Source of the DNA: Bacillota bacterium
Lineage (GTDB): Bacteria > Bacillota > Sulfobacillia > Fermentithermobacillales > Fermentithermobacillaceae
Reading direction: 5' to 3'
Length of the DNA stretch: 64,000 nucleotides
NCBI GenBank assembly: GCA_033809515.1
Contig: JAPXLN010000006.1
Coordinates: 15,186 to 79,185, forward strand
Part shown: positions 1,954-37,144 of the stretch, piece by piece
Numbering within the stretch: the stretch's first letter is position 1
Layout of the letters: each line of letters starts with the position of its first letter
Notes under the pieces: generated by a model
Databases searched by the model: none
Seen by the model: the letters and a program-made list of their open reading frames with translations, nothing else
Told to the model about the DNA's origin: nothing
Made by a program: the position numbers and the translations under genes

Positions 1954-2015
1954 ATGCAGCATGTGGGCAGTCCACGTGGGTACATGAAGCTGTCAATACC
2001 GGGAGGTGACTCGAA

Positions 2016-3116: not shown

Positions 3117-3138
3117 CTGCTTTGTTGGAGGTTATACT

Positions 3139-4293: not shown

Positions 4294-4295
4294 AG

Positions 4296-4877: not shown

Positions 4878-4996
4878 TGATGATCATCTGCCTTGCAGGC
4901 CCTATTCAGCCACTCCTGTTTCATCTTTGTCTGCGTCCTCTTCCTGTAATTATACGTGTTTTTTTCGTCATCCGGCCTTGCCTGGATGCTGGGCTT

Positions 4997-5013
4997 ATGA
5001 TCAGAATGATCAT
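4997..5013. promoter_or_regulatory. perfect 17-bp palindrome ATGATCA-GAA-TGATCAT; related ATGATCAT copy at 4880-4887 overlapping the bioY start; candidate operator
   Basis: Seen directly in the sequence. It sits in the divergent intergenic region between bioY and the GRE activase. Confidence 0.3.
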
Positions 5014-5201
5014 AGACTAATCGCGCCGTACAGGCAACTTCTCGGCGGGCAGGGAAGATGACAGCCATCAGAGAAAAGTAAGGAAGGCAGTAAGGCCAAG
5101 AGACGAGTGTGAGCTTGTTGTCGCACCGCGCTCAGCCCAAGCTTTGGGGCAGAGCAAAGAAGACAGAGTGAGCGGCAGGGGCGAAACAGGAGGCGACCGG
5201 A

Positions 5202-6086
5202 CTGAATACAGGGGTCATATTTAACATTCAAAGGTACTCCATACATGATGGGCCGGGTATCAGGACGACCGTGTTCTTTAAGGGGTGTCCGCTGAGGTGT
5301 CTGTGGTGCCATAATCCGGAAAGTCAGATGGCAGGGCCTGAGCTTATGGTTTGGAGGAGCCGGTGTATCTCCTGTGGGGCATGCGTACGGGTCTGCCCTT
5401 CAGGAACGGCAAGAGAGGAAATGTGTGCCCTCTGCGGGAGGTGCGTGGAGGTCTGCCCTGCTAAGGCAAGGGAACTTGTGGGAAAGAAAGTCACGGTTGA
5501 CTATGTGGTTAAAGAGGTTCTGAAAGACAGGGTGTTTTATGAGGAATCCGGCGGCGGCGTCACTTTTTCCGGAGGAGAGCCGCTTATGCAGCCTGCGTTT
5601 CTCAGAGAGTGCCTGGAGGGGTGCAAAGAGGAAGGTCTGAACACTGTAGTCGATACCTCGGGGTTCGCTCCGTGGGACAGTATAAAGGCGGTATTCCCCC
5701 TGACAGACTTGTTTTTGTACGACATAAAGACCGTTGATGATGCCAGACACAGAGAGTACGTAGGTGCGCCCAGTGCCCTTGTATTGGACAACGTGAACCG
5801 GCTGGTAGCAGAGGGAGCTTGCGTTGTGGCAAGGTTGCCCTTGATACCGGGAGTCAATACGGATGATTCAAGCTTAAGGGATATAGGCGAATTTCTGCAG
5901 CGTACGGGCCTCAGGCGTATTGACGTGTTGCCATATCATGATACCGCCAAAGAGAAATATTCGAGGCTCAACAGGCAATATGCATTAGACAATGTACCGC
6001 CTGCATCAGGCGACGACCTGGCGCGCGCCCGGGGTATCCTTGGCGAGTTTGGCCTGGTTGAGGCGAATGGGAGGGAGTCACCATGA
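5202..6086 (+). CDS. glycyl-radical-enzyme activating enzyme (radical SAM, with two extra ferredoxin-like Cys clusters); start uncertain (candidate CTG at 5202; ORF track gives GTG 5271)
   Basis: GCPLRCLWCHNPES is a CxxxCxxC radical-SAM motif. CISCGACVRVCPSG and CALCGRCVEVCPAKA are typical of GRE activases. The conserved N-terminus GVIFNIQRYSIHDGPGIRTTVFF is in frame upstream of 5271 with no ATG/GTG/TTG. AGGAGG at 5188-5193 lies 8 nt before the in-frame CTG at 5202. Confidence 0.8.
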   Translation: MNTGVIFNIQRYSIHDGPGIRTTVFFKGCPLRCLWCHNPESQMAGPELMVWRSRCISCGACVRVCPSGTAREEMCALCGRCVEVCPAKARELVGKKVTVDYVVKEVLKDRVFYEESGGGVTFSGGEPLMQPAFLRECLEGCKEEGLNTVVDTSGFAPWDSIKAVFPLTDLFLYDIKTVDDARHREYVGAPSALVLDNVNRLVAEGACVVARLPLIPGVNTDDSSLRDIGEFLQRTGLRRIDVLPYHDTAKEKYSRLNRQYALDNVPPASGDDLARARGILGEFGLVEANGRESP

Positions 6087-11408: not shown

Positions 11409-11561
11409 GCTCCTTTGCGGGGGTCAAGGAAGCGTTTTCAGATCCAGTATATACCTGTCAGGAGCTCAATGCCAAGCATTGCCGGGGACTTGCATTGGGA
11501 AAATAAGCCTGTGGAACCGGCGAGTATTGCCAATTTATGGGGGTTGTGGTAGGCTGTTGTC

Positions 11562-12209
11562 ATGCTACGAAGGATGGATTTGGCAGTATATGCACTCACG
11601 GCGATCCTGCTGGTTATCACCGCCAGCCTCTGGTGGGTGGGTATGCGCCCGGTAGGAAGGGTGGAACCGGAGGCGGTAGCTATGGCGCGTCCAAATGGTC
11701 CGGATGGTCCGGATGTGAACGAGCAGTCCGGAACCCATGGGTCAGCCACAGACCAAACCGGGTCGGCACAGGAGCGTATAATCGTAGTCCACATTGCGGG
11801 AGCGGTAAAGACTCCGGGAGTCTACCACATAAAAGAGGGGCAAAGGTTGTACCAGGCTCTGGAACTGGCTGAGCCTCTTGAAGACGCCGATCTTGATGCA
11901 CTGAACCTGGCGGGCATTCTCAGAGATTCAGAGAAGGTATACGTGCCCAAAAAGGGCCAAGTAGGTTCAGGCAACACGGATGGAGGCTCCGGAACCCGGC
12001 CTCAGGAACTCAGGTTTCCCATTGATATCAACTCTGCAACAGCCCAGGAGCTTGATTTGCTTCCCGGCATTGGCCCTGTCCTTGCAGATGCCATTGTGCG
12101 GTACCGGACTGACAACGGGCCCTTCAGACGGCCGGAGGACATCAAGAACGTTCCGGGAATAGGTGAAAAGACGTACCAGAAGTTTGCAGGGCTTATTGTG
12201 GCCCGGTGA
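11562..12209 (+). CDS. comEA: competence protein ComEA (SLBB + helix-hairpin-helix DNA-binding)
   Basis: N-terminal TM segment, then HIAGAVKTPGVYHIKEGQRLYQAL, and a C-terminal HhH INSATAQELDLLPGIGPVLADAIVRYR...NVPGIGEKTYQK. Confidence 0.75.
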   Translation: MLRRMDLAVYALTAILLVITASLWWVGMRPVGRVEPEAVAMARPNGPDGPDVNEQSGTHGSATDQTGSAQERIIVVHIAGAVKTPGVYHIKEGQRLYQALELAEPLEDADLDALNLAGILRDSEKVYVPKKGQVGSGNTDGGSGTRPQELRFPIDINSATAQELDLLPGIGPVLADAIVRYRTDNGPFRRPEDIKNVPGIGEKTYQKFAGLIVAR

Positions 12210-12275: not shown

Positions 12276-12305
12276 TTGACAACAGGCTTCTGGACTATCT
12301 ATAAT
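12276..12305 (+). promoter_or_regulatory. sigma-A promoter of groESL: TTGACA (12276-12281), 18-nt spacer, TATAAT (12300-12305)
   Basis: Consensus hexamers seen in the sequence, immediately upstream of the CIRCE element. Confidence 0.6.
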
Positions 12306-12314
12306 ATCCCTCGG

Positions 12315-12341
12315 TTAGCACTCACAACCCGTGAGTGCTAA
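12315..12341 (+). promoter_or_regulatory. CIRCE element (HrcA operator) TTAGCACTC-N9-GAGTGCTAA, perfect consensus
   Basis: The sequence is TTAGCACTCacaacccgtGAGTGCTAA. It sits between the promoter and the groES start. Confidence 0.9.
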
Positions 12342-12385: not shown

Positions 12386-12676
12386 TTGGCACTGAAGCCA
12401 CTGGCCGACCGCGTGGTAGTGAAGCCGGTTCAAGCGGAGGAAAAGACTAAGGGGGGAATCGTCCTTCCGGATACCGCTAAGGATAAGCCGCAAGAAGGGG
12501 AAGTGATTGCGGTTGGACCCGGTCGTATCCTGGATGACGGGACCAGGCTTGCTCCTGAAGTCAAGGTGGGCGACAGGGTTATCTACTCCAAGTACAGCGG
12601 TACCGAGGTCAAAATTGAAGGCGAGGAGCACCTCGTTGTTCGCGAGAGCGACATTCTTGCCATCAAGACACAGTAG
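12386..12676 (+). CDS. groES: co-chaperonin GroES (start TTG at 12386; the ORF-track start 12335 overlaps the CIRCE element and is rejected)
   Basis: [56 protein letters not shown] lies 9 nt upstream of the TTG. Confidence 0.9.
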
Positions 12677-12726
12677 CGAGATTCAGCAGGAAAGGCTAGG
12701 CATGCGAGAACGATTCTACTTCTTAG

Positions 12727-14373
<1,647 letters not shown>

Positions 14374-14550
14374 TTCGCAGTGCCAGAGGGCCAGGGCGCC
14401 CTTTCGGCGCGACGGACTGCAAGCAAGATTCCCCCGGGGGCGAAAGCTCCCGGGGATCCTTATTTTATGGAACAAAAACCCGTGCCCTTCGTCTATGGGA
14501 TCTGGGGATCGGACGGGGTAACGTTCATAGACTGGGGGAGGCGGAGGCTC

Positions 14551-16107
14551 ATGAAGCGAGTTCCGGTCAGATGGATAGTGGTTGGCGCTGTGGTGCTTGC
14601 CATTGCAGGTCTGGGGTACTGGGGAATTAGGGCCATGTCTGCAGGCGAAGAGGGCCAGTTGGTCATGGCTTTGAAGCCTGTGACCAGGGGAGATATCGAG
14701 GTTATGGTCCGTGGATGGGGCCAGCTTCAAGCTACTGAAGAAAGGGATGTACTTGCAGGCGCGTCCGGCGTGATCCAGTCGGTCTTGTTTCGACCTGATG
14801 AGCCTGTGCAAAAGGGACAGGTGCTGGCCACCATTGATGCTGGGTCTCTTTCGGTTACGCTTAAGCAAAAGGAAATTGCCCTTGAAGCAGAAAGGATCAA
14901 ACTTGCACGAGCTTTTGGCGTTTCACCGGCTCAAGTAGCCAGTGTTCAGCCTGAGGCAGCCCTTGTCTTAAGGAGTCCCAGCGCCGGCAAGGTGATCAAT
15001 TTGTCGGTGGAAACCGGTTCTGCAGTGACAGGTCCGGTGTGCAAGGTAGTTGACGACTCATCTCTGTTGATCAAGATTCAGCTTTCCAAGACGTTTTTCG
15101 ACCAGACAGAACTGGGGACCAAGACCACATTTCTTCCCACAAGGTTTGCCGGGGAGAATCCGGGCAAGGTAGTGCGCAAGGATCCCACACCTATCAGCGG
15201 GTCTGATACATACTACTATGAAGTGTGGATCGAAATGAAGAATCCCGGGCTTCTCAAAGTCGGTGATGACGGGATACTGATGATCCATGGCTCCGGAGGG
15301 GACATACAGCAAAAGACAAGCATTACCGCTGTTGGGGCTGAGGAAACCGTGACAGCGTCGTTTGCGGGTAAGGTCAAGCAGGTCTTCGTGAGAGAGGGCA
15401 TGGTTGTCAAGGCAGGGGACCCTCTTTTAGAGTTTGAAGCAGGAGAGGCCCTCCTAAACGCCATGACAGCTCAGCTGGAATTCAGGAGGCTTTCCCTGGA
15501 GGTGGAAGATCTCCGGTCCCAGATGCAGAACCTGGAGATCCTTGCGCCAATCGATGGAGTAGCCTGGGGCGTATACGTCACCGTAGGGCAGACGGTGTCT
15601 AAGGGCGCTCAGATCACGCGCATATGCAACTACACTCAGATGAACCTTTCCCTGCGAGTGGATGAGATAGACATTCCGAAACTAGAGGTGGGCCAGGAAG
15701 CGCAAGCTTTGATCTGGGGACGTGAAGGCCGCCAATCAGTCCCGGCAGTCTTATCCCGGTTAGGAAGCAAGGGAGACCCTCAGGATGGGTTGGCAGGATT
15801 CAGCGTTACTCTGTCCATTGATAACCCCGGATTCCTGCGGCCGGGCATGGGGGCCGAGGCTGAGATATACGTTTCCAAGAAGGAGAACGTGCTTCTGTGT
15901 CCCGTTGAAGCAGTGTACAAAGAGGAAGACAAGTGGTTTGTCGATATGAAAGACGGCAAGGACAGAAAGCCGGTGGAAGTCCGGATTGGCCTCATGAACG
16001 ATCGGTTTGCTGAGATACTGGAGGGGATTTCTGAAGGTCAGGAAGTTGTTGTAGGCATGAGCAAGCAGCCTTCAGATCCGGGAGGCGGGACAATCATGCC
16101 TTTCTAG
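14551..16107 (+). CDS. HlyD/MacA-family efflux periplasmic adaptor (membrane fusion protein); ORF-track N-terminal extension from 14380 rejected
   Basis: ATG at 14551 follows GGAGG. N-terminal TM WIVVGAVVLAIAGL. It has the lipoyl-like/beta-barrel architecture of membrane fusion proteins. It is long for its family (518 aa). Confidence 0.6.
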   Translation: MKRVPVRWIVVGAVVLAIAGLGYWGIRAMSAGEEGQLVMALKPVTRGDIEVMVRGWGQLQATEERDVLAGASGVIQSVLFRPDEPVQKGQVLATIDAGSLSVTLKQKEIALEAERIKLARAFGVSPAQVASVQPEAALVLRSPSAGKVINLSVETGSAVTGPVCKVVDDSSLLIKIQLSKTFFDQTELGTKTTFLPTRFAGENPGKVVRKDPTPISGSDTYYYEVWIEMKNPGLLKVGDDGILMIHGSGGDIQQKTSITAVGAEETVTASFAGKVKQVFVREGMVVKAGDPLLEFEAGEALLNAMTAQLEFRRLSLEVEDLRSQMQNLEILAPIDGVAWGVYVTVGQTVSKGAQITRICNYTQMNLSLRVDEIDIPKLEVGQEAQALIWGREGRQSVPAVLSRLGSKGDPQDGLAGFSVTLSIDNPGFLRPGMGAEAEIYVSKKENVLLCPVEAVYKEEDKWFVDMKDGKDRKPVEVRIGLMNDRFAEILEGISEGQEVVVGMSKQPSDPGGGTIMPF

Positions 16108-16137
16108 AGACGCTGGGGCCGGAGGAGGGACGACAGA

Positions 16138-17298
16138 TTGCAGTTACATGACCTGATTGCGATTTCCATGAGGGGGCTTACCGGTAACAAGATGCGCTCA
16201 GCCTTGACTATGCTGGGCGTCATCATCGGTGTTGCTTCGGTGATTTCGCTTGTATCGGTAGGGGAAGGGGCCAAGCAGGACGTCATAGCTAACTTCGAGA
16301 GCATAGGGACTAACATGCTGAAGTTGTACATGCAAAGGTGGGACGTGCGCCTTACCCTGGAGCAGGTGGTCGAACTCAGAGACAGGGTGCCCGACATGCA
16401 GCTGGCCATGCCCATGACATACTGGTGGGCGCCGGTTACATATGAAGGGAAGGAACGCCACTTCGAGGCACAGGGAGTAACCGAGGTGTTCCCTGTAATA
16501 AGGGATCATCCGTTGTACCAGGGAAGGTTCTTCACCGCCGTTGAGAACGAGATATCCAGACCGGTTGCGGTTCTGGGCTGGCAGGTGGTGCAGGAGCTCT
16601 TTGCAGGACGTAACCCTGTGGGCAAAACAATCTACCTTAACCAGCGTCCTTTTGAGGTCATCGGGGTTCTCGAGGAGAAGGGGCAGTACCTGGGAGAAGG
16701 CGTAGACCGCATAATATTCGTACCCCTGTCGGTGGCCCAAAGAGGTCGGGGCACCAACAGAGTGGACATAGTCTACATGAAGGCCAGAAGCAAAGACACA
16801 GTTCCTGTAGTGCAGGTGAGCGTAGAAAGGATATTCGAGTCAAGATACGGTCCTGAATCTGTCCAAGTCTGGACTCAGCAGTCTATGCTGGACCAGCTGC
16901 AGCAGTCAAACCGCACCATGACTCTCATGCTGGGTGCCATAGCCGGCGTATCGCTGCTGGTAGGCGGTATCGGCGTCATGAACATAATGCTGGTGTCCGT
17001 TGCCGAGCGTACCCGGGAGATCGGGCTCAGAATGGCCGTAGGCGCCAAACGGCACCAGGTGGCGCTGCAGTTTCTCATAGAGTCGGCTCTTTTGTGTTCC
17101 TTCGGAGGCCTAATCGGTGTAGCTGCAGGGCTGGGAGGTTCCCGTCTTGTATCCAAACTGGGACCAAAGACTGTCATATCTCCTGTCTCTGTGTTCATAG
17201 CTTTTGGCTTTGCGGTGCTCGTAGGGTTCCTGTTTGGCGTGTACCCTGCTGTAAGAGCTTCACGCCTTGCCCCTGTAGATGCCTTAAGAAGCGAATAG
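16138..17298 (+). CDS. ABC transporter permease, MacB/FtsX family (no ATPase domain)
   Basis: N-terminal TM, a large periplasmic MacB-like domain, and a C-terminal FtsX 3-TM bundle with the typical ERTREIGLRMAVGA motif. Confidence 0.7.
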   Translation: MQLHDLIAISMRGLTGNKMRSALTMLGVIIGVASVISLVSVGEGAKQDVIANFESIGTNMLKLYMQRWDVRLTLEQVVELRDRVPDMQLAMPMTYWWAPVTYEGKERHFEAQGVTEVFPVIRDHPLYQGRFFTAVENEISRPVAVLGWQVVQELFAGRNPVGKTIYLNQRPFEVIGVLEEKGQYLGEGVDRIIFVPLSVAQRGRGTNRVDIVYMKARSKDTVPVVQVSVERIFESRYGPESVQVWTQQSMLDQLQQSNRTMTLMLGAIAGVSLLVGGIGVMNIMLVSVAERTREIGLRMAVGAKRHQVALQFLIESALLCSFGGLIGVAAGLGGSRLVSKLGPKTVISPVSVFIAFGFAVLVGFLFGVYPAVRASRLAPVDALRSE

Positions 17299-17335: not shown

Positions 17336-19807
17336 ATGGCACCGCTGTTATTATTAAGGAGATGGCTTGGCCTTGCCCGCCTGAGAAGAGCTGCAAAGCA
17401 AGAGAAACGTCCCGGGCGCAAGGCGCTCCCCCTGCAAAAGGTCGCGCTTTTGGGCCCATGCATAGCTGCCCTTTGGGGCGCGACTTTCCCTTCTAAGACA
17501 GGTTGCGCCCTGTCTTTTGCGGGGGCCCTTGGGCTTGTGCTTTGCTCCTTTGCGGCACGACAAAGGCACCGCAAAAGGGCCCGCAAAGCCCTGGCCTTCT
17601 CGGTTATCCTGGTCACATCTTGTCTTTTCGCCTTAAGAGGGTTCCACTGGCAGAGCTGTGCCGCTTTGGCAGAGAAACTGGCCTCTGAAGGGGTTTCCGT
17701 GACCTTGACCCTCAGGGTTGCCCGTCTGCCCCAGCAGTCAGAAAGCAAATACGGCGGCCAAACCTCGCTGCACTTCACAGGCGAAGTACTTTCGGCCTCA
17801 ACCGAAGCTTCCGGCCCACTGGAAGGCCGGCTTCGGGGCCAGAAAGTGTCTGTCCGGACCTACGGCAGCAGAGGGATTGCCCCCGGTTGTGGCGACGTTG
17901 TGGTGGTGAAGTGCAAATTCACACATGTCCGGCGCGCCATGAACCCAGGAGAGTTTGATGAGCGGCGCTATCTCCAGAGCAAGAGGATCTTTTACGCAGC
18001 TGCAGGCACCATCCAGGAGATCCATCCGGATCGCCGGGACTCTTTAGCTGCCGCTCTACTGCGAGTTATTCGCCTTGAGCCGGTCACAACCATGATGAGA
18101 GACGTCCTTGACCAAAACCTTCCTCAAGATGACAGCGCCGTCCTCAAAGGGATTCTTCTGGGAGAAGACGGCGACATCAGCAAGCCGGATATCCAGGACT
18201 TTCGCCGGTCAGGACTATATCGCTTTTTGAGCGTAACGGGATTCCACATCGAACTGGCAGCCAGAGTCGTAGAGAAGGCAGGAACCCGGCTTACGAGAAA
18301 ACGAGGATTCCCCTGTTTTCTGGGCGCATCTGCCGCTCTATGCCTAGGTCAGCTTGCCGGATGGACGGCCGGCTCCATACGGGCTGCCACCTGCTGTTCC
18401 ATGCGCCTTCTCTCATATGGCTTCAGGGCCAGGTACGACACAATAGCCGGACTCTCTCTGGCCGGGCTCCTGACAGCGTGGGCCATCCCCTTTCCACTGC
18501 AAGACGCCGGGTTCAAGCTATCCTTCGCAGGTTCCCTGGGCGCCTGGGCCGGAAGAAGATATCCGGGCAGATTTCACATGCTCCTGGTCCTTGTTCCTAT
18601 GATGGCCGCCACCTTCCAGGAGGTATCTGCTGCCGGTTTGCTTCTTGGAGGGTTCTGGATGGGGATCCTTGCATGCCTGATTCCCCTTTGCCTTGCGCTG
18701 CTCCTGGTTCCCAAAGCCTGGGCTGCCTTAGGCTGGGCCCCTCATCTAATGCTTCGGGGGATCCGGGTCGTGTCCTCGCAGGTATCCTCGATTCCGCTTT
18801 CAACCTGGGCAGTTTTTTGCCCGACCACAGCCGAGCTGACCCTGTGGTACGCTATCCTCGGTCTTTGGTGCCTTCAACAGGAAAGGGCCGCCAGGCGGAC
18901 CGGGGATCCGCGAAGTCTTGTGAGGAAACGCAGGTCTTCTCTTACCGCCCTTGGCCTGGCATGTTTCCCGGCCCTGGCCTGTTGCCTGCTTATACTGGCC
19001 TCACTGCGAGTCTGCCTTCCCTGGCCCGAGATAATCTTCCTAAGTGTGGGTCAGGGTGACTGCGCCGTAGCCCGGTACAGGAAAACCACCGTCATAATCG
19101 ATACAGGGACCCCCGAAGCCTTCGCCGGGCATGTCCTTCCCTATCTCAGGAGGCAGGGTCTAAACCAGGTGGACCTGGCCGTCATCTCCCACCTGCATTC
19201 CGACCACGTTGGGGGTGCGCCTTCCCTTTGTGAACAGGTGCGCCTTGGGGGTTTTCTTACGGCTAAAGGGACAGCCAAAGCTCTTGAGAATCTGCTTTTG
19301 GCAGAGTCTTCGGGGCACGCCAAGCCAACGGTAACCGAGGCTGAGGGCGGCAAGTGGTACAGGGTTGGCAGTTTCCTTCTGTACGTGTGCGATTCACTTC
19401 CTTCTCCTGACGCAGCTATGTCCGGAGACCTCAATGAGGCAAGCTTGATAGTGCTCTTGTACACAGACAAAGGTCGTCTTTTGGCAGAGTTCTGGGGGGA
19501 TGCCACTGCCCCGGCCATACAGCGAGCTTTGCCCGGCATCAGACTGGATACGCCAGGACAAAATGGCGTGTGGGCGGTGAAAGTCCCCCATCATGGAAGC
19601 AAGGACTCGCTGGTAAGCGGATTTTACGATAGACTGGACGGTGGAATAGCTATTGTATCTGTAGGTTCCAACGCTTATGGTCATCCCTCACCCGAGGCCA
19701 TATCCATGCCAGGGGAGAGAGGGCTCTCGGTGTTCCGGACTGATAGGACCGGAGGAGTGACGGTGACCTTTCTGAGGGGAGTAAGGGCCAGGGCGTTCGT
19801 TAGATAG
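17336..19807 (+). CDS. comEC: DNA internalization competence protein ComEC/Rec2 with C-terminal metallo-beta-lactamase domain; true start uncertain
   Basis: Polytopic membrane core, plus a C-terminal VISHLHSDHVGG motif and the HHGS motif of the MBL fold. Confidence 0.8.
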   Translation: MAPLLLLRRWLGLARLRRAAKQEKRPGRKALPLQKVALLGPCIAALWGATFPSKTGCALSFAGALGLVLCSFAARQRHRKRARKALAFSVILVTSCLFALRGFHWQSCAALAEKLASEGVSVTLTLRVARLPQQSESKYGGQTSLHFTGEVLSASTEASGPLEGRLRGQKVSVRTYGSRGIAPGCGDVVVVKCKFTHVRRAMNPGEFDERRYLQSKRIFYAAAGTIQEIHPDRRDSLAAALLRVIRLEPVTTMMRDVLDQNLPQDDSAVLKGILLGEDGDISKPDIQDFRRSGLYRFLSVTGFHIELAARVVEKAGTRLTRKRGFPCFLGASAALCLGQLAGWTAGSIRAATCCSMRLLSYGFRARYDTIAGLSLAGLLTAWAIPFPLQDAGFKLSFAGSLGAWAGRRYPGRFHMLLVLVPMMAATFQEVSAAGLLLGGFWMGILACLIPLCLALLLVPKAWAALGWAPHLMLRGIRVVSSQVSSIPLSTWAVFCPTTAELTLWYAILGLWCLQQERAARRTGDPRSLVRKRRSSLTALGLACFPALACCLLILASLRVCLPWPEIIFLSVGQGDCAVARYRKTTVIIDTGTPEAFAGHVLPYLRRQGLNQVDLAVISHLHSDHVGGAPSLCEQVRLGGFLTAKGTAKALENLLLAESSGHAKPTVTEAEGGKWYRVGSFLLYVCDSLPSPDAAMSGDLNEASLIVLLYTDKGRLLAEFWGDATAPAIQRALPGIRLDTPGQNGVWAVKVPHHGSKDSLVSGFYDRLDGGIAIVSVGSNAYGHPSPEAISMPGERGLSVFRTDRTGGVTVTFLRGVRARAFVR

Positions 19808-28077: not shown

Positions 28078-28152
28078 TGGTGGCCCCAACGGGAATTGAA
28101 CCCGTGTTGCCGCCTTGAAAGGGCGGTGTCTTAACCACTTGACCATGGGGCC
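28078..28152 (-). tRNA. tRNA-Glu (anticodon UUC)
   Basis: Reverse complement GGCCCCATGGTCAAGTGGTTAAGACACCGCCCTTTCAAGGCGGCAACACGGGTTCAATTCCCGTTGGGGCCACCA. Anticodon loop CUUUCAA. Encoded CCA end. Confidence 0.9.
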
Positions 28153-28162
28153 GCTTTCGATG

Positions 28163-28237
28163 TGGTGCGCCCGGGGTGCATCGAACACCCGACCAATCGG
28201 TTATGAGCCGATCGCTCTGCCGCTGAGCTACGGGCGC
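28163..28237 (-). tRNA. tRNA-Met (anticodon CAU; elongator, or tRNA-Ile2 if lysidinylated)
   Basis: Reverse complement GCGCCCGTAGCTCAGCGGCAGAGCGATCGGCTCATAACCGATTGGTCGGGTGTTCGATGCACCCCGGGCGCACCA. Anticodon loop CUCAUAA. G1-C72 is paired, so it is not an initiator. Confidence 0.85.
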
Positions 28238-28243
28238 ACATAT

Positions 28244-28320
28244 TGGCTCCTCGAGCAGGATTCGAACCTGCAACCCTCCGGTTAACAGCCGGATGCTCTG
28301 CCGTTGAGCTATCGAGGAGC
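28244..28320 (-). tRNA. tRNA-Asn (anticodon GUU)
   Basis: Reverse complement GCTCCTCGATAGCTCAACGGCAGAGCATCCGGCTGTTAACCGGAGGGTTGCAGGTTCGAATCCTGCTCGAGGAGCCA. Anticodon loop CUGUUAA. Confidence 0.9.
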
Positions 28321-29086: not shown

Positions 29087-30196
29087 ATGATAATGAGAGC
29101 TCGAGGGATGTCAAGGGCCCGGTTGTTGTTCTATGAGGCGGCCCTGTTAGTCTTCCTTATTTTCCTGGCGGGGTCCTTTCGCGCCTATGTGGCAGCTCCG
29201 GTTTTTCAGGACGAAACCAGACCTCAGGAACCGGGGATTAGAGTTCCTTCTGTGTTTGACCTCATATGGCAAGGCAAAGGCATGCCCCAGAAAGTCTTGA
29301 GGGCCGGTTTTCCCATGCTCAGGTACATGGAGGACATGCGGACAGATTCAGGTCCTGCAGGACTGGTCGCACAGGCTGCCGGATGGCTCATGGGATTCAT
29401 ACCCAGAGACATTGCTGATCTGGCATTTGGGCAGCTGGCTGGATTTCTTGCCGAGTATGAGCCTGGAGGCGGATTTGGAGTGCCGGTTGAGCTGGAGCAG
29501 GAGTGGGGCGTTACGCCCGTGCTCTACACGCTGCCGCCAGGAGACGACATGATTGCTGCGTCGCTTGGGTTGAGCGGTCAACCTCTAGTAGCTATCTACC
29601 ATACTCACGCCACCGAATCCTACCTGCCTGAACTGGGAAAGAAGGCTCCCGCTGATGCCTTTACCGCAGATATGTCTAAGTCTGTGGTAAAGCTAGGGGA
29701 ACTTCTGCTCCAAGAGCTGGAAAGAAGGTATCGCATACCCTGTTTGCATTCGAAGACCGTCCATGACAGCGATTCAAGGATAGGTGCCTACTACAGGTCA
29801 GATCAGACGGTTCAGGCTGTTCTGAAGAAATACCCAGAGTGTAAAGTGCTTATAGACCTACATCGGGACAGCCAGCGCAGGAATCTGACTGCTGTAACCA
29901 TTCGCGGGAAGAGCTATGCCCGCCTTCTGTTCGTAATAGGAACCGATAATTCCGGGTGGGTTTCAAACTACAACTCTGCCCGCAGAATCCAGTCACGACT
30001 GGAAGAAGCGTATCCCGGGATATCGAGAGGTTTCTTGTACTCGTCAGCCTTCTACAATCAGCAGTACTCCCCAAGCGCCATTCTTGTTGAAGTCGGGGGT
30101 GTTGATAACACCCTAGCCGAGTGCAGAAACAGCATGGAGGCCCTGGCATGGGCGTTGGCGGCAACTTTGCTGCCTGCCGCCCCTACACGTCCTTAG
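29087..30196 (+). CDS. spoIIP: stage II sporulation protein P (SpoIIP amidase/endopeptidase family)
   Basis: N-terminal TM and the hallmark motif VAIYHTHATESYLPE. RBS GGGAGGGGAG upstream. Confidence 0.8.
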   Translation: MIMRARGMSRARLLFYEAALLVFLIFLAGSFRAYVAAPVFQDETRPQEPGIRVPSVFDLIWQGKGMPQKVLRAGFPMLRYMEDMRTDSGPAGLVAQAAGWLMGFIPRDIADLAFGQLAGFLAEYEPGGGFGVPVELEQEWGVTPVLYTLPPGDDMIAASLGLSGQPLVAIYHTHATESYLPELGKKAPADAFTADMSKSVVKLGELLLQELERRYRIPCLHSKTVHDSDSRIGAYYRSDQTVQAVLKKYPECKVLIDLHRDSQRRNLTAVTIRGKSYARLLFVIGTDNSGWVSNYNSARRIQSRLEEAYPGISRGFLYSSAFYNQQYSPSAILVEVGGVDNTLAECRNSMEALAWALAATLLPAAPTRP

Positions 30197-30212
30197 CCCC
30201 TACCTTGCCCCA

Positions 30213-30242
30213 TTGACACTTTTCATACATACGTGCTATCTT
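30213..30242 (+). promoter_or_regulatory. candidate sigma-A promoter of the hrcA operon: TTGACA (30213-30218), 17-nt spacer, weak -10 TATCTT
   Basis: Hexamers seen in the sequence. The -10 element is poor. Confidence 0.4.
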
Positions 30243-30251
30243 GCAACTAGG

Positions 30252-30278
30252 TTAGCACTCTATGGCCAGGAGTGCTAA
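30252..30278 (+). promoter_or_regulatory. CIRCE element (HrcA operator) TTAGCACTC-N9-GAGTGCTAA, perfect consensus
   Basis: The sequence is TTAGCACTCtatggccagGAGTGCTAA. Confidence 0.9.
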
Positions 30279-30294
30279 GAGGGGGGTTCATGAA

Positions 30295-31320
30295 GTGGCA
30301 CTCGACGAAAGAAAAGCTCGCATACTCAGGGCGGTTATCGAGGAGCACATTGAGACGGGGATTCCCGTTGGTTCAAGGATTATTGCCAGAAGGTATTCCC
30401 TGGGCGTCAGCAGCGCCACTATCCGGAACGAAATGGCCGATCTGGAGGAAACGGGCTACCTGGACAAACCTCATACTTCCTCAGGAAGGGTGCCTTCGGA
30501 TAAGGGGTATCGGTTCTACGTAGACGAGCTTATGCCCAGGAGGGGCCTGACAAGGGAAGAGCATGCCGCCATAGAGTCGGTTTTCAGATCCAAGGTTATG
30601 GATGTTGTCTCTGTACTGAAGGAGGCTGTCCGGGTGGTATCGGAAACCACCTGTTACCTTGGGTTTGTCTTAGGACCGGAGTTCGCTGATGTTACCTACC
30701 AGGCTATACATCTCCTTCCCCTTTCGGCCGGAAAAGGGTTGCTCGTCATTGCCACCGACATCGGGTTTGTAGAAAGCTGTATCATTGAAGTCCCGGTGAT
30801 GAACCGGGAGGAGATGGCCTACGTCGCCGGTATGCTCAACAGGCACCTTACCGGCATTAACCTGGATGGAGTAGGCGACAGAGCACACCGCCTTCTGCAT
30901 GAGGAGGCCTCCCGGTACGCTGAGATCATCGACCAGGTAGTGGATTTCCTTCGAAGCATGGTTTCCGATGCAGGTGAGGAACGCTTATACGTTGGAGGCG
31001 CAGTCAACCTTTTGAGGCAGCCCGAGTTTCAGGACATTGACCGGGCTCGCGAGCTTCTTCTAGCTATCGAACGGGAAGGGGTCATTCAGTCTATCCTGGA
31101 CAGCCAGAGCCATGCCCAGGATTCCGGCATTGCCATAGGGGCGGAAAACAGACTTGACAGCGTAGCAGACGTCAGCGTCGTATACGCCACCTTTCAGGTA
31201 GGCAAAAGTGAAGGTAAGATCGGTCTTCTTGGCCCCAAGCGCATGGATTACGCAAGAGCTGTGGCAATAGTGAGGGATTTTGAGAGACGGCTGTCCCGTT
31301 TCTTCTCTCAAGACAACTGA
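30295..31320 (+). CDS. hrcA: heat-inducible transcription repressor HrcA (GTG start at 30295; the ORF-track start 30262 lies inside CIRCE)
   Basis: LDERKARILRAVIEEHIETGIPVGSRIIARR is the HrcA winged-helix N-terminus. RBS AGAGGGGGG lies upstream of the GTG. Confidence 0.85.
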   Translation: MALDERKARILRAVIEEHIETGIPVGSRIIARRYSLGVSSATIRNEMADLEETGYLDKPHTSSGRVPSDKGYRFYVDELMPRRGLTREEHAAIESVFRSKVMDVVSVLKEAVRVVSETTCYLGFVLGPEFADVTYQAIHLLPLSAGKGLLVIATDIGFVESCIIEVPVMNREEMAYVAGMLNRHLTGINLDGVGDRAHRLLHEEASRYAEIIDQVVDFLRSMVSDAGEERLYVGGAVNLLRQPEFQDIDRARELLLAIEREGVIQSILDSQSHAQDSGIAIGAENRLDSVADVSVVYATFQVGKSEGKIGLLGPKRMDYARAVAIVRDFERRLSRFFSQDN

Positions 31321-31384
31321 ACACGAAAGCGTAAGTATCACAGAAGAAAAAAGCACTGGGGAACCAGGTGTCAGGAGGGACGAC

Positions 31385-32968
31385 ATGAGTTTGAAGCAAG
31401 TCTCACAGGGCTCCGAAACCGACGATAGGCTGGCTGCCCTTTTTACCAACTCTAATGCGGTCAGAGCCATTGCATCTGCTGTCGAAGGTACTATTGGTCC
31501 AAAAGGTCTGGATACTCTCCTGGTGGACCGATTCGGTGAGGTGGTCATCACCAACGACGGAATGACCATTTTGACCAAGATGGATGTGAACCACCCCGCA
31601 GCTAAGATGGTTATCAATACTGCCCGGGCGCAGGAGGAGGAAGTGGGCGATGGGACCACAACTGCCACCATCATGGCCGGCGCACTCCTGACAGAGGGAG
31701 TGGATCAGGCTGTTCGCGGGGTACCTGTAATCAGGCTTATAGACGGGATTAGAATGGGCATCGGCCGCGCCATCGAGGTAATCGAGGAGAGATCCTCCAA
31801 GATTGCCGAACTAGACGACCCGCTGCTCAGAAAAGTCGCGCTGGTTGCCGGCAGAGACAATGAGGATATTGCTGACCTGGTTGTAGAGGCTGCCAAAATG
31901 GTGGGTGCCGAGAAACTTATGGATGAGCGCTTCAGATTGTCTGAAACCATCACTGCCAAAGAAGGCGCAGAAAGCCAGGTATTTCCAGGTATCATCATTG
32001 ACAAGAAGCGCCTGAACAATGACATGCCCGAGGATCTTGAAAACCCCAGGATTCTCGTTATAGACGACGCCCTTGAAAGCGAGGAAGTCGAGGATGAAGC
32101 TCTGGCCACCGAAGCCGGCTTTCAGCGTTACCTTGATCTCCAGGAAGAGTTCAGGAGCAATCTCTCGAAGATTGTGAAAATGGGCGTAACCTTCGTCGTA
32201 GTTGACAAGAGCGTCAGCGACATTGCTGAAGAGACCCTCACTGACGCCGGAGTAATAGTTGTCTCCAGAGTATCCTTTTCTGAGCTCAGAAAAGTCTGCG
32301 AGCATACCGGCGCCCGTGCCATAAAACGAACAGGTCTCAAGAAGACTGTGGAGGAGCTGGAAAAGTACGTAGGTGAGGCAGACAGGGTTTACGAAGATCA
32401 AAAGCTGGAGAATATTCGGGTAATAGGCGGAAAGGGCAAACCTATGGCTACCATACTGGTAGGTGCGAGCACAGCGGAAGTCCGCGGCGAAAGGGAGCGG
32501 ATCTGCACCGATGCAGCATCGTCGGTACAGGCAGCTGTTCGGGGGGGTGTCGTCCCCGGAGGCGGCGCAATAGAGATTGCTTGCGCCCGGGAGATCGACA
32601 AACTTCGTGCAAGCACAAAAGGGATGCGGGCCTACGGTCTTCACTGTGCGGTGGAAGCTTTGAAGAAGCCCATGGCGCAAATAGTGTTTAACGCCGGGTT
32701 TAACCCCCTTGAGAAAATAGGCGATGTCTTAGCCCGCCAAACAGAGGAAGACAATGACAATCTAGCAGTTGATTGCGATACAGGAGACGTAGTGGATATG
32801 ATGGAGATGGGAATTATTGACCCATCTCAGGTTAAGACCCATGCACTCAAGGCAGCTTTGGAGATCGCCTGTGCCATACTTCGCATTGATACCATTATCA
32901 AGAAGAGGGAAGATGAGAGCGTTCAGGCATCTCAGTCCAGAGACGGGGCGGAGGAAATGAGCTTTTGA
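31385..32968 (+). CDS. group II-like (thermosome/CCT-like) chaperonin, bacterial 'group III' type, encoded inside the hrcA-dnaJ heat-shock operon
   Basis: [46 protein letters not shown] and GGGAIEI are motifs diagnostic of group II chaperonins, not of GroEL. ATG at 31385 follows AGGAGGG. Confidence 0.85.
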
Positions 32969-34116
32969 AAAAGGATTACTATGAGGTTCTAGGAGTAAGC
33001 AAGAATGCTACCCAGGAAGAAATCAAGGGGGCATTCAGGCAGCTTGCCAAGAAATGGCATCCCGATGCCAATCCAGGGGACCCGACGGCTGAAGCGAAGT
33101 TCAAAGAGATAAACGAAGCCTACGACGTTCTTTCCGATGAGACCAAGAGAAGCAATTACGACAACTTCGGAAATCCTGACGGTCCTGTAGTGGGTCCGGG
33201 TCATGGAGGCGGGCCGGGCGAAGATCCTTTTGGGCGGCTCTTCGGAGACTTCGGTTTTCCGTTTGGCAATCTTTTTGGGGATTTCCAGGATGCTTTTGGA
33301 GGAAAAACCAGGCAAGCTGCAGGGCCCAGGCGCGGTGATGACCTGGAGATCGAGATAGACGTTACGCTGGAAGAAGCGTTCAAAGGCACCGAAAAAGATC
33401 TCCGGATTCCCAGGACTGAAGTCTGCGCGCGATGCAATGGAACAGGCGCTGAACCGGGTCATTCGCCGGTTACCTGTTCCGCCTGCGGCGGACGGGGGCA
33501 AGTCAGGACAACTCGGACCACCTTGCTAGGACAGGTTACAACCGTCGGCACGTGCCCCAAGTGCGGGGGTTCAGGCAAAGTCGTAGAGAAACCATGCGTG
33601 GAATGCAGGGGCGCAGGCGAGGCGCAAAGGACAAGAACGGTCACGGTGAAGGTTCCTCCGGGGGCCGACTCCGGCCTTCGTTTGAGGCTTTCAGGTCAGG
33701 GAAACGCGGGACGCCGGGGCGGACCTCCGGGAGACCTGTATGTTGCGGTTTTTGTCAGGCCACATGCCATCTTCCAACGACAGGGAGACGATCTCATCGT
33801 CGACAAGACTGTAAGCTTTCCGCTGGCAGCCATCGGGGGCAAGACCCGGATTCCCACCCTCGAAGGAGGAGAGGACCTCACTGTTCCCGGAGGCACTCAA
33901 CCGGGGGCGGTGCTAAGGCTTCGGGGCAAAGGCATGCCCGGGTTGAGGCACGGCGGCAGGGGCGATCTCATGGTTCGCGTTAACGTTCGGGTGCCTACGA
34001 AGTTGAGTTCCCGCGAGAAGGAACTGCTTCGGGAATTAGGGGAGACGGAGGGCGAATCTCTCTCCGACTCCTTCTTTAGGAAGCTTCGAAAGACCGGTGA
34101 CGGGGGATCCGTCTAG
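32965..34116 (+). CDS. dnaJ: chaperone DnaJ
   Basis: J-domain DYYEVLGV...HPD, a G/F-rich region, and four CxxCxGxG zinc-finger repeats. TTG start overlaps the chaperonin stop. Confidence 0.9.
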
Positions 34117-34139
34117 AGAGGATTTGAGAGGGGACTGAC

Positions 34140-34892
34140 TTGAGTCGCGTAGGGGACCATACGCCGACCCAGTTTTTTACTGAGGAGTCAGCTGTATTGG
34201 GAAACCGGGTTACCTTGACCGGCCATGTTTACAGGCATGCCATGGCTCAAAGGCTCTCCCGGGGACAGGTGATCCGGGTTGCGACCGGTAATACCGTGTA
34301 TCTGGCCAGGGTTGACGGCGGGGGTAAGGGCTTTATCACTGCCGAGATCACGGAGGTATGTCAGAGTCCTCAACCCGGACTGCAGGTCCACCTTTATCCT
34401 GCTCTTCTCAAGGGTCAGAAGCTTGACCTGGTTGTGGAGAAATGCACGGAGCTTGGAGTAGCTTCGATCCGGCCTGTCATAACCAGGCGGACCATATCTG
34501 ACCTTACTCCTGAGAAGATTCAATCCAGAAAGGACCGGTGGGAGCGGATTGCCAGGTCTGCTGCGGAGCAATGCACAAGACCCCGAATTCCTCTGATAGG
34601 CAGCCCTGTTCCTCTGGCTGATGTGCTTAAGACCGGCTTGCGCGGCCTGGGGTTGTTTGCATACGAGGCAGAGAACTCCCCTACCGACTTTGCCGCTCTA
34701 GTGGACAGATGGACCGAGGTATCGGTGATCATCGGCCCTGAAGGGGGGTTTGACCCTTCCGAGGTCAGTTTGGCCGCCCAGTCGGGTTTGACACCTGTAT
34801 CTCTGGGGCCGTTTGTGCTCAGGGCCGACACAGCTTCTATAGCTGCTGCAGCTATACTTATGGCCTGCAGAAGCGCCGGCGCGCACTGCTAA
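34140..34892 (+). CDS. rsmE: 16S rRNA (uracil1498-N3)-methyltransferase RsmE
   Basis: LVVEKCTELGVASIRPV and IIGPEGGF motifs. Conserved position downstream of dnaJ. Confidence 0.8.
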   Translation: MSRVGDHTPTQFFTEESAVLGNRVTLTGHVYRHAMAQRLSRGQVIRVATGNTVYLARVDGGGKGFITAEITEVCQSPQPGLQVHLYPALLKGQKLDLVVEKCTELGVASIRPVITRRTISDLTPEKIQSRKDRWERIARSAAEQCTRPRIPLIGSPVPLADVLKTGLRGLGLFAYEAENSPTDFAALVDRWTEVSVIIGPEGGFDPSEVSLAAQSGLTPVSLGPFVLRADTASIAAAAILMACRSAGAHC

Positions 34893-34949
34893 AGGTCATC
34901 ACCTTGTTTTGCCTGCCATACCCTTCTCTTAGAGGCTTTTGGACGCTGC

Positions 34950-35738
34950 ATGGATCGTCTGTTGGCAGCTACGTGTCAAGGGGAGGGAGCGGGTGTGGAC
35001 AAGAAACTCGGTGTGGTCTTTATCAGTCGGAGGTATGTGTATTCTGCTTTCCTCTTGGTTATTCTTTGGGCCATGTGCAATCTCCGCTGGGCAGGTATGT
35101 TCGAGGAAGACGCGGTCGTAGCTGCACTGGCACCTATAACAAAGGGTGCCGGCGACCAACCGTTTGCCGCTTTGATGTTTAACGTAGATTGGGGCACAGA
35201 CCACCTTATGGGGATTCTGGACATACTCAAAGAGAAGCGTGCGCCGGCCACATTCTTTCTTACAGGTGCCTGGGCCCAGGACAATGCCGAACTGGCCAAG
35301 CGAATACTGGAAGAAGATCATGAAGTCGGAAATCACGGGGGCACTCATCTTCATCCGAACTTGATGTCCAGGGAGGCTTTTCGAGACCTGGTCTACAAGG
35401 GAGAAACTAGCATAGAGCAGGCCACCGGATCAAAACCGTCCCGGATTTTCGCACCTCCCTACGGTGAATGGTCCGACGCCACGGTGACCTGGGCTTTGGA
35501 GGCAGGCTATCAGACCATCCTTTGGACAGTCGATACAGTTGATTGGCGGGAGCCTCCCTGGGAAGTCATATGGAAGCGGGCGGCGGCCGGAGCTCGTCCG
35601 GGCAGTCTTGTGCTTCTCCACCCAACAGCTCCGACGGTTCAGGCTCTGGCCCCCATAGTGGACAGCTTTAGGGAAAAAGGCCTCCAGTTAACGAAGGTTT
35701 CAGAGGTCATATCCTTTGATCCCAGAGTCATCAGGTAG
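34950..35738 (+). CDS. polysaccharide deacetylase (NodB-homology domain; sporulation-associated PdaB-like)
   Basis: TFFLTGAWAQDNAELAKRILEEDHEVGNHGGTH, and an N-terminal TM segment. Confidence 0.75.
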   Translation: MDRLLAATCQGEGAGVDKKLGVVFISRRYVYSAFLLVILWAMCNLRWAGMFEEDAVVAALAPITKGAGDQPFAALMFNVDWGTDHLMGILDILKEKRAPATFFLTGAWAQDNAELAKRILEEDHEVGNHGGTHLHPNLMSREAFRDLVYKGETSIEQATGSKPSRIFAPPYGEWSDATVTWALEAGYQTILWTVDTVDWREPPWEVIWKRAAAGARPGSLVLLHPTAPTVQALAPIVDSFREKGLQLTKVSEVISFDPRVIR

Positions 35739-35821
35739 AAGACTTGTTTCCTGGCCTCAGGCTGCTCATAATTAGATACAATGGAATGTACCTTTGCGGA
35801 GGAAAAGCTTTGTCAGATAAC

Positions 35822-37144
35822 ATGCAGGCGAAAACCGTTTTTTTTCGCGCTTTTGGCTGCAAACAGAACCAGTACGAGACCGACTTTCTCAGAGAAGTCT
35901 TTGCTGCCAACGGGTTTGAGGTCGTTGATGCGGAACCCGCTGATATTGTGGTCATTAACACCTGCGCAGTAACCCAAAGAGGCGCTGCTAAGTGCCGTCA
36001 GGCCATACGGCGCGCCGCTAGGCATGGTGCCAGGGTGGTTGTGACAGGATGTTATGGGCAGATAGCTCCCGGTGAGGTTGCACAGATACCCGGAGTCATT
36101 TTGGTAACAGGAGTGCATGGGCGGGATCAGATAGTATCTTTGGTCAAGGATGCGCTCTCACCCGGAGGCACAGAACGGGATTGCCCCTTAGTTCAAGTGA
36201 AGCCTCACGCAGAGGGTCAGCCCTTCGAGGAAACACCTGTGCAGCGACCAGTCTTAACCCGGGCGTTTCTGAAAGTGCAGGAAGGATGCGACGACTTCTG
36301 CACGTACTGTGTAGTGCCTTATGCCAGGGGACCTTCCAGATCAAGGCCTGTCAGCGCCATCTTGGAAGAGGCCGGGGGACTGGTTGAACGGGGATACAAG
36401 GAGATCGTGTTGACAGGAACCCATCTGGGTCTTTATGGAAAGGGAGAGGAGCAAGGCGAGTTTCCTGCTCTTTCAGAGGTAATAAGGCGGCTCTGTAATG
36501 TACCCGGCCTTCAGCGACTCCGCATCAGCTCGTTGGAGCCTCACGATGTTACTGAAGACCTTATTGAGTGTCTTAAGCTTCCTCAAGTATGTCATCATCT
36601 GCACCTTCCCGTTCAAAGCGGCAGCGACAGGATACTGAAGATGATGGGACGGCGCTATGATGTCAGTTTGTTCCTGGAGACCGTACGAGCTGCTCGTGAG
36701 GTGGCGCCGGATGTTGGAATCACCACAGACATCATTGCCGGTTTCCCTGGAGAAACCGAGGAAGATTTCTCCAAGACCCTGGCTGTTGCCCGGGAGGCGG
36801 AGTTTTCGCGTATCCACGCATTCAAGTTTTCGGCGAGGCCTATGACTCGCGCATACCATTTTCCAGGCAAAGTGTCTGAGAAAGAGAAGGAGCGCAGGGT
36901 TTCAGAGCTCATAGGCCTTGGGAAGGAACTTTCTGTTGAATTCCACCGTAAGCATATAGGAAGAATCGTTGAGGTACTTGTGGAAGACGAAAGAGCTGGC
37001 AACGGCCTGCTGACCGGGTTGACCGGCAACTACGTAAGGTGTTTCCTGCCGGGGCCCGATGTCTATCGGGGTCAAATTGTCTTGGGCAAAGCTGTAAGGG
37101 AATCCTCCAACGGAGTGTATCTTGAGGACACAAGGTTAAGGTAG
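35822..37144 (+). CDS. mtaB: tRNA threonylcarbamoyladenosine methylthiotransferase MtaB (MiaB-family radical SAM); start ATG 35822 preferred over the ORF-track 35744
   Basis: MTTase N-terminal FGCKQNQYETD...VVINTCAVT, and the radical-SAM CDDFCTYC. Conserved position after rsmE. Confidence 0.8.
   Translation: MQAKTVFFRAFGCKQNQYETDFLREVFAANGFEVVDAEPADIVVINTCAVTQRGAAKCRQAIRRAARHGARVVVTGCYGQIAPGEVAQIPGVILVTGVHGRDQIVSLVKDALSPGGTERDCPLVQVKPHAEGQPFEETPVQRPVLTRAFLKVQEGCDDFCTYCVVPYARGPSRSRPVSAILEEAGGLVERGYKEIVLTGTHLGLYGKGEEQGEFPALSEVIRRLCNVPGLQRLRISSLEPHDVTEDLIECLKLPQVCHHLHLPVQSGSDRILKMMGRRYDVSLFLETVRAAREVAPDVGITTDIIAGFPGETEEDFSKTLAVAREAEFSRIHAFKFSARPMTRAYHFPGKVSEKEKERRVSELIGLGKELSVEFHRKHIGRIVEVLVEDERAGNGLLTGLTGNYVRCFLPGPDVYRGQIVLGKAVRESSNGVYLEDTRLR

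Follow-up and report, generated by a model that had tools for sequence, protein, structure and literature searches.

A Group III chaperonin gene in a class I heat-shock operon without grpE and dnaK in Fermentithermobacillia

The hrcA-chaperonin-dnaJ operon and its operators

We analyzed a 64-kb stretch of contig JAPXLN010000006.1 (the window; all window coordinates follow the numbering of the whole stretch) and focused on an operon in which a thermosome-like chaperonin gene (cpn) lies between hrcA and dnaJ, with neither grpE nor dnaK. This is a class I heat-shock operon, defined by the repressor HrcA and its operator, the controlling inverted repeat of chaperone expression (CIRCE), in an uncultured spore-forming Bacillota of the Fermentithermobacillia (DTU015) lineage. 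The initial annotation had read the order CIRCE, hrcA, chaperonin, dnaJ at this site, which was borne out by an exact CIRCE and by matches to TIGR00331, PF00118 and TIGR02349.

The first cistron encodes the heat-inducible repressor HrcA (30295..31320, + strand, as are all features of the two chaperone loci described below; 341 aa from GTG; TIGR00331 310.6 bits against a cutoff of 197; PF01628). The ATG given in the list of open reading frames (ORFs), at 30262, falls within the CIRCE; the GTG at 30295 has a GAGGGGGG ribosome-binding site and is the hrcA start also called on an identical public Logan contig (L001). The chaperonin gene (31385..32968; 527 aa; PF00118, 386 bits; C-terminus EEMSF) follows hrcA after a 64-bp spacer, and an AGGAGGG ribosome-binding site lies 6 nt ahead of its start codon. 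Its stop is overlapped by 4 bp by the TTG start of dnaJ (32965..34116; 383 aa; TIGR02349 424 bits, cutoff 377); judged from the sequence, this overlap is translational coupling of the two genes. The DnaJ protein matched PF00226, PF00684 and PF01556 and contains the His-Pro-Asp (HPD) motif, a Gly/Phe stretch and four CXXCXGXG repeats, including CVECRGAG. That is, it combines the J domain, Gly/Phe linker, zinc-finger repeats and C-terminal domain of a class A J-protein.

Downstream of dnaJ lie rsmE, a polysaccharide deacetylase gene, mtaB and ddl. A terminator scan yielded no convincing terminator after dnaJ, and rsmE (34197..34892; 16S rRNA U1498 methyltransferase; PF04452, TIGR00046; also called on L001) is probably the distal gene of the operon, with co-transcription suggested by the dnaK operon of Bacillus subtilis. 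The deacetylase gene (34950-35738) is an insertion that separates rsmE from mtaB, and ddl stands after mtaB; this arrangement is common to DTU015-type loci.

We searched the 64 kb for CIRCE as TTAGCACTC-N9-GAGTGCTAA, allowing up to 3 mismatches. Exactly two sites were found, at 12315-12341 and 30252-30278, both without mismatch, and dinucleotide-preserving shuffles gave matches in 0 of 100. The site at 30252..30278, a perfect inverted repeat in the 5' leader of hrcA, begins 10 nt past the -10 box of a predicted sigma-A type promoter (30213..30242; TTGACA, 18 nt spacer, TG-extended TATCTT; 10/12 in a consensus scan). Of 38 related loci, 32 likewise had a perfect CIRCE in front of hrcA. The second operator (12315..12341) lies upstream of groES, behind a promoter that was read from the sequence (12276..12305; TTGACA, 18 nt spacer, TATAAT). 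The claim that a canonical groESL lies 18 kb upstream of the chaperonin operon and has a perfect CIRCE to itself thus proved correct, with the two genes at 12386-14373. The first of them, groES (12386..12676; 96 aa from TTG; AAGGGGGG ribosome-binding site), was identified by its GroES-typical translation; groEL (12742..14373; 543 aa; PF00118) encodes a Group I chaperonin without GGM repeats at its C-terminus. The groESL genes with their promoter and CIRCE lie between comEA (11562-12209) and a pair of efflux genes, HlyD-like and MacB-FtsX-like (14380-17298). The efflux pair is followed by comEC (17336-19807) and then holA, so that groESL sits inside an otherwise Bacillus-like comE-holA block.

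A perfect CIRCE between the promoter and the first gene at two loci, together with the presence of hrcA, identifies the two operons as a class I regulon, and the operators indicate that HrcA would control both hrcA-cpn-dnaJ and groESL. HrcA of B. subtilis needs free GroEL to stay active. In the unstressed cell, HrcA would bind CIRCE at both loci and keep hrcA-cpn-dnaJ and groESL repressed. Following the B. subtilis model, unfolded protein would titrate GroEL, HrcA would become inactive and both operators would be released. GroES-dependent and GroES-independent chaperonins would then rise together with DnaJ. A single sigma-A promoter would drive hrcA, the chaperonin gene (of Group III, as described below) and dnaJ, probably reading on into rsmE.

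The window keeps a Bacillus-type gene order: comEA, the inserted groESL, comEC and holA are followed by spoIIP and hrcA, then by rsmE and mtaB, and further on by yqfD, phoH, a 7TM-HD protein gene, ybeY, dgkA, recO, glyQS, ppdK, dnaG and sigA. Because the neighborhood has retained this order, the chaperonin operon occupies the orthologous dnaK-operon site.

Absence of grpE and dnaK and identity of the chaperonin

The 1645 bp from the hrcA stop to the dnaJ start are occupied by one intact chaperonin ORF of 527 aa. Since this ORF fills the interval and its stop overlaps the dnaJ start, there is no hidden frame for grpE or dnaK. DnaK and GrpE queries from E. coli and Pelotomaculum gave no tblastn match anywhere in the 64-kb window. 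The tblastn search spans the entire window and takes in five ORFs between 56554 and 63890 that were left out of the Pfam scans; in those scans, which covered most of the larger window ORFs, no GrpE or HSP70 domain was detected. The proposed absence of grpE and dnaK between hrcA and dnaJ was confirmed by the filled interval and by its repetition in many independent assemblies, and the check for a frame error revealed no grpE-dnaK beyond the called frames, only one intact ORF with its 4-bp overlap. An assembly or frame artefact that hides grpE-dnaK could appeal to the general error rate of metagenome-assembled genomes (MAGs) and to the frameshift-fragmented genes of one related locus (L040), but it was ruled out by the intact ORF, by two independent Logan contigs (SRR28714610 and SRR28714609) that carry the same protein in the same layout, and by the same layout in at least 12 independent assemblies, a closed genome included. 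The exact window chaperonin was found on two short Logan contigs only; the nearest protein among species representatives was 78% identical.

The comparison covers 31 loci, gathered by scanning a single genome of each species, together with the contexts of database matches. All 12 DTU015 (Fermentithermobacillia) loci analyzed had spoIIP, CIRCE-hrcA, cpn, dnaJ and rsmE with the 4-bp cpn/dnaJ overlap; among them is the closed genome CP062796.1 (Ca. Fermentithermobacillus carboniphilus Bu02). Another ~12 Bacillota MAGs, whose chaperonins share 65-70% identity with that of the window, were also without grpE-dnaK. The two genes were kept in three Pelotomaculum-type loci and in L026, L036 and L038. 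The order in Pelotomaculum thermopropionicum is spoIIP, x, lepA, hemW, CIRCE-hrcA, cpn, grpE, dnaK, dnaJ, prmA, rsmE, mtaB. This ancestral form, which includes grpE-dnaK, was also seen in four to five other lineages. Besides grpE-dnaK, lepA, hemW and prmA were absent from the window locus (29087-37144, compared with locus L003) and from the whole window, and their absence was common to DTU015-type loci. The hrcA-cpn-dnaJ layout is therefore real, old and lineage-wide in the DTU015 class. No description of this layout without grpE-dnaK was found in the searchable literature; DnaK, GrpE or "chaperon" is unmentioned in the Bu02 closed-genome paper and its supplements, and none of the other papers mentioning DTU015 was on chaperones. 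The layout without dnaK has apparently not been described before.

The central gene of the operon had been called thermosome-like and neither GroEL nor DnaK, and the scores, a loop deletion and the tree described below all agree with this; the motifs quoted in its support are present in the ORF. Among PDB entries, the window chaperonin matched 9rwq, a resurrected ancestral chaperonin, with 659 bits; 5x9u, the Group III chaperonin of Carboxydothermus hydrogenoformans (Ch-CPN), with 487 bits; the archaeal thermosome 1a6d with 250 bits; and subunits of the eukaryotic chaperonin CCT with 150-190 bits. The alignment to 5x9u contained one single-residue gap across 519 residues, whereas against the thermosome 6 residues were missing precisely at the nucleotide-sensing loop, in addition to small gaps in the lid. 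In the loop region, the window chaperonin was gapless to Ch-CPN (AKIAGRGDERVAAI), with the 6-residue gap against the thermosome (ALTALSGKNTGLSNDFLADL); the stretch around the gap reads IAGRGDERVAAI in Ch-CPN and LSGKNTGLSNDFLADL in the thermosome. In the lid region, the window chaperonin shows deletions of 3 residues and 1 residue when compared with the thermosome, but none when compared with Ch-CPN. In addition, it has Arg where Group II chaperonins have Lys, as in Group III, and its nucleotide-binding motifs are all intact. The missing nucleotide-sensing loop and the lid deletions are structural hallmarks of Group III (An et al. 2017, PMC5635000).

The nearest proteins in the protein database, at 73-78% identity, were MAG proteins, of which the named ones belong to Candidatus Fermentithermobacillaceae or Bacillota. 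The chaperonins of P. thermopropionicum, Thermosinus carboxydivorans, Desulforamulus and Lucifera were 64-66% identical; that of P. thermopropionicum, PTH_0876 (66%), is assigned to Group III in the supplementary table of An et al. 2017 (PMC5635000). In a neighbor-joining (NJ) bootstrap tree, the bacterial clade containing Ch-CPN and the window chaperonin split from the thermosome with a support of 90/100, with one thermosome and one GroEL as the only outgroups and thus a thin sampling. The window chaperonin fell within a Fermentithermobacillia clade (97/100), and the window GroEL branched as an outgroup to it. The suggested placement of the protein in a phylogeny thus grouped it with the bacterial Group III chaperonins and left GroEL outside. 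The score and alignment to 5x9u, the loop deletion, the identity to PTH_0876 and the tree together indicate that the window chaperonin is a further member of the published bacterial Group III family. An et al. 2017 (PMC5635000) counted 195 members, whose genes, with one exception, lie inside the dnaK operon; the initial annotation likewise placed such chaperonins in dnaK-type operons. Members form 16-mers of two 8-membered rings with a built-in lid, need no GroES and refold proteins in an ATP-dependent manner, and by analogy the window chaperonin would form the same oligomer.

Recent transfer of a Group II thermosome subunit gene from an archaeon is a very improbable origin of the gene. Thermosome models were its best NCBIfam matches, and no Group III model was among those matches; however, all of them scored far below their cutoffs (TIGR02339, 312 of 671 bits; NF041082, 311 of 450; NF041083, 311 of 400). 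The higher score to Ch-CPN than to the thermosome, the deletions shared with Ch-CPN, the thousands of bacterial homologues with identities of up to 78% and the nested position in the bacterial clade of the NJ tree ruled out such a transfer. A GroEL paralogue was rejected as well: GroEL NCBIfam models gave 168-187 bits on the window chaperonin (TIGR02348, 168 against a cutoff of 582), and no groES-like ORF adjoins its gene.

The best PDB match, 9rwq, was deposited as "Ancestral Group II Chaperonin (ACII)" and is near-gapless to the window chaperonin, with a score far above that of the same-named 9rwp (302 bits). Its label is probably a duplicate, and the entry would be the ancestral Group III reconstruction of PMC12696368. 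We also observed an acidic-x-x-x-Phe C-terminal tail (EEMSF, EDMDF, EEVDF, EMEF, EPDF) in the chaperonins of dnaK-less operons and of L026, located at 32951-32965 in the window (EEMSF). The Pelotomaculum and C. hydrogenoformans chaperonins are without it; the C-terminus of the window GroEL (14356-14370) resembles it. The tail could be a cavity-facing or partner-docking motif.

Deletion of grpE-dnaK and a probable Hsp70 partner of DnaJ

In 9-10 dnaK-lacking loci outside DTU015, the 265-370 bp between cpn and dnaJ contain one intact ORF of 85-100 aa. This ORF aligns without gaps to DnaK residues ~200-300, which form subdomain IIB of the nucleotide-binding domain, and matches positions 225-303 of Pfam HSP70 above the gathering score. 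In L030, L035 and L039 the ORF start overlaps the cpn stop or lies directly next to it, and in L030 and L039 the ORF ends at the dnaJ start. The dN/dS values of two pairs, 0.13 and 0.32, indicate purifying selection, and the family forms 19 clusters in a 5.8-billion-protein database, some of them auto-named "Hsp70 family protein". The fragment, or mini-DnaK, looks like a domesticated piece of the deleted dnaK (L030, 11476-11742; L031, ~11464-11724; L016, 11598-11840; L017, 1699-1917; L018, ~11584-11862; L020, ~4459-4716; L024, 11683-12075; L033, 9455-9676; L035, 11595-11891; L039, 10001-10261).

Because a piece of DnaK remains at the old dnaK position in these relatives, the loss of grpE and most of dnaK was a deletion in place that followed the entry of the chaperonin into the operon. 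The ancestral hrcA-cpn-grpE-dnaK-dnaJ operon became hrcA-cpn-dnaJ through this deletion, and in DTU015 cpn became coupled to dnaJ. In the clade of the window, the DnaK fragment is also gone. The description of the chaperonin as replacing grpE-dnaK is thus right with regard to position; as a swap it did not hold, since the relatives show that the chaperonin joined an intact operon and that the deletion came later. In L030 (8917-10025) and L031, hrcA is separated from the chaperonin gene by an insert of ~1 kb carrying a 237-aa ORF, and the chaperonin ORF is without its first ~40 residues, the start of the GPKGLD motif included. This region may represent a disrupted gene or a mobile insertion.

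The HPD motif was present in 24 of 24 full-length DnaJ proteins from dnaK-less loci. The J domain was the best-conserved region of DnaJ, with a mean pairwise identity of 0.83 in DTU015 and 0.73 in the remaining lineages without dnaK, compared with 0.73 and 0.52, respectively, for the zinc-finger and C-terminal part. The J domains of dnaK-less loci were 66-73% identical to those of dnaK-containing operons. To our knowledge, the only established role of a J domain is to trigger the ATPase of Hsp70. Since the Hsp70-specific part of DnaJ is under such strong constraint, the Hsp70 partner (DnaK and GrpE) is most probably encoded elsewhere in the genome. Genes can leave this neighborhood without being lost from the cell, because lepA, which is near-universal in bacteria, is missing from the locus and the window. 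We put the probability of the whole explanation, namely the identity of the operon, its regulation, the deletion of grpE-dnaK in place and a dnaK elsewhere in the genome, at about 0.8.

Several observations weigh against this explanation. Neither dnaK nor grpE was seen in the 64-kb window or within 10 kb on either side of the operon in ~24 dnaK-lacking genomes. A second dnaK copy must be assumed, because a relic in place fits deletion better than translocation. The dnaK-less loci were monophyletic in 2/100 NJ replicates, and in 62/100 when the dnaK-containing L026 was added; the tree does not separate one loss of grpE-dnaK from several.

The alternative is that DnaK and GrpE were lost genome-wide. 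The Group III chaperonin would then have taken the folding role of Hsp70, with DnaJ as a holdase feeding it and the coupling of cpn to dnaJ aiding this transfer; more widely, Fermentithermobacillia and several other Bacillota lineages would live without any Hsp70 system, the chaperonin having made DnaK and GrpE dispensable, and some of these lineages would also have kept the ~85-aa DnaK subdomain-IIB fragment. The absence of dnaK from the window and from the flanks of the operon in ~24 genomes agrees with such a loss, as does the fact that grpE-dnaK was deleted in place and not visibly moved, leaving the fragment at the old site in sister lineages. The cpn and dnaJ pair is invariant in every locus, with the 4-bp overlap in the clade of the window. 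In B. subtilis, dnaK is dispensable at normal temperature, which also speaks for such a loss. The J domain, however, stands out as the most conserved stretch of DnaJ throughout the 24 dnaK-less loci, its HPD being invariant, and the disappearance of lepA from the same locus shows that absence from the locus is not absence from the genome. Moreover, Warnecke is said to have described in 2012 that some Aquificales lost DnaK-DnaJ-GrpE, a known precedent for bacteria without Hsp70 in which the loss of DnaK reportedly took dnaJ and grpE along. On balance, functional replacement of DnaK by the chaperonin is unlikely, both for the window and in the wider form.

The DnaK of L026, the dnaK-containing locus closest in the chaperonin tree, was used as a query to the 5.8-billion-protein database. 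Among the matches listed (at least 120, at 79-82% identity), none was named Fermentithermobacillaceae, which is uninformative on absence; those that carry names belong to Negativicutes, Thermosediminibacterales and similar groups. Searching the literature for bacteria that lack DnaK turned up only studies of deletion mutants.

If a genome-wide loss were true, these would be free-living bacteria with a J-protein but no Hsp70, pointing to a direct partnership between J-protein and chaperonin. If dnaK is simply elsewhere, as we favor, the layout is an operon rearrangement specific to the lineage, and its importance is modest. In either case, the loci point to a group of naturally occurring genomes, including a closed one, that bears on whether a thermosome-like chaperonin lets a bacterium do without Hsp70.

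Elsewhere in the window, a cluster of tRNA-Glu(ttc), tRNA-Met(cat) and tRNA-Asn(gtt) genes (28078-28318, - strand) lies between valS and the holin-like and spoIIP genes. The region 169-8443 contains a gene for a MutL-type (PF13941) protein and two ORFs (366 and 384 aa) without a Pfam match, and further on a BioY transporter gene (- strand) and genes for a pyruvate formate-lyase-like glycyl-radical enzyme (786 aa) and its radical S-adenosylmethionine activase.

Comparison with known systems

The window operon shares much with the class I regulon of B. subtilis, which we take to consist of the hrcA-grpE-dnaK-dnaJ-yqeT-yqeU-yqeV and groESL operons under CIRCE/HrcA. The operator sequence, its location downstream of the promoter and ahead of the first gene, hrcA as the first cistron and two operons per genome are the same. 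The neighborhood is also the same, with comE genes, holA, spoIIP, rsmE (yqeU) and mtaB (yqeV), and further on phoH, ybeY, recO, glyQS, dnaG and sigA. In contrast to B. subtilis, the window operon is without grpE, dnaK and prmA (yqeT), lepA-hemW is missing upstream, a chaperonin gene is present between hrcA and dnaJ, and groESL lies between comEA and the efflux-type gene pair upstream of comEC. The Aquificales differ in another way: all three genes are reportedly lost there, whereas the window keeps dnaJ with an intact, strongly conserved J domain.

With the archaeal thermosome and CCT (Group II), the window chaperonin shares the PF00118 fold family, an alignment that spans the built-in helical lid of thermosomes, and the lack of an adjacent GroES-like gene. 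It differs from the archaeal thermosome by its score of only 250 bits to 1a6d, the 6-residue loop deletion and the shorter lid, and both its host and its predicted control by HrcA are bacterial.

The closest likeness is to Ch-CPN (5x9u/5x9v) and orthologues such as PTH_0876, which have the same missing nucleotide-sensing loop, Arg for Lys and shortened lid, the same upstream CIRCE-hrcA and the same operon partner, dnaJ. The window gene thus stands at the orthologous site of Group III genes, flanked by CIRCE-hrcA and dnaJ, with the grpE and dnaK of that operon absent. The chaperonin family is already known, and what appears new is the dnaK-less form of an operon type that is itself known. The window operon differs from Ch-CPN-type systems in that it is without grpE and dnaK and that cpn is coupled to dnaJ, and the Ch-CPN and Pelotomaculum chaperonins differ from that of the window in being without the acidic-x-x-x-Phe C-terminus. 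Group III chaperonins have been proposed to co-operate with DnaK, because they sit in the dnaK operon (PMC5635000, PMC5220055). In the window locus and ~24 relatives, however, the conserved neighbors of the chaperonin are hrcA and dnaJ, not dnaK; that is, dnaK and grpE could be removed while cpn and dnaJ stayed paired, and even translationally coupled. Since this pairing is constant with or without dnaK, we hypothesize that DnaJ rather than DnaK is the functional neighbor of the chaperonin, which would move the testable hypothesis from DnaK handing clients to the chaperonin to DnaJ doing so.

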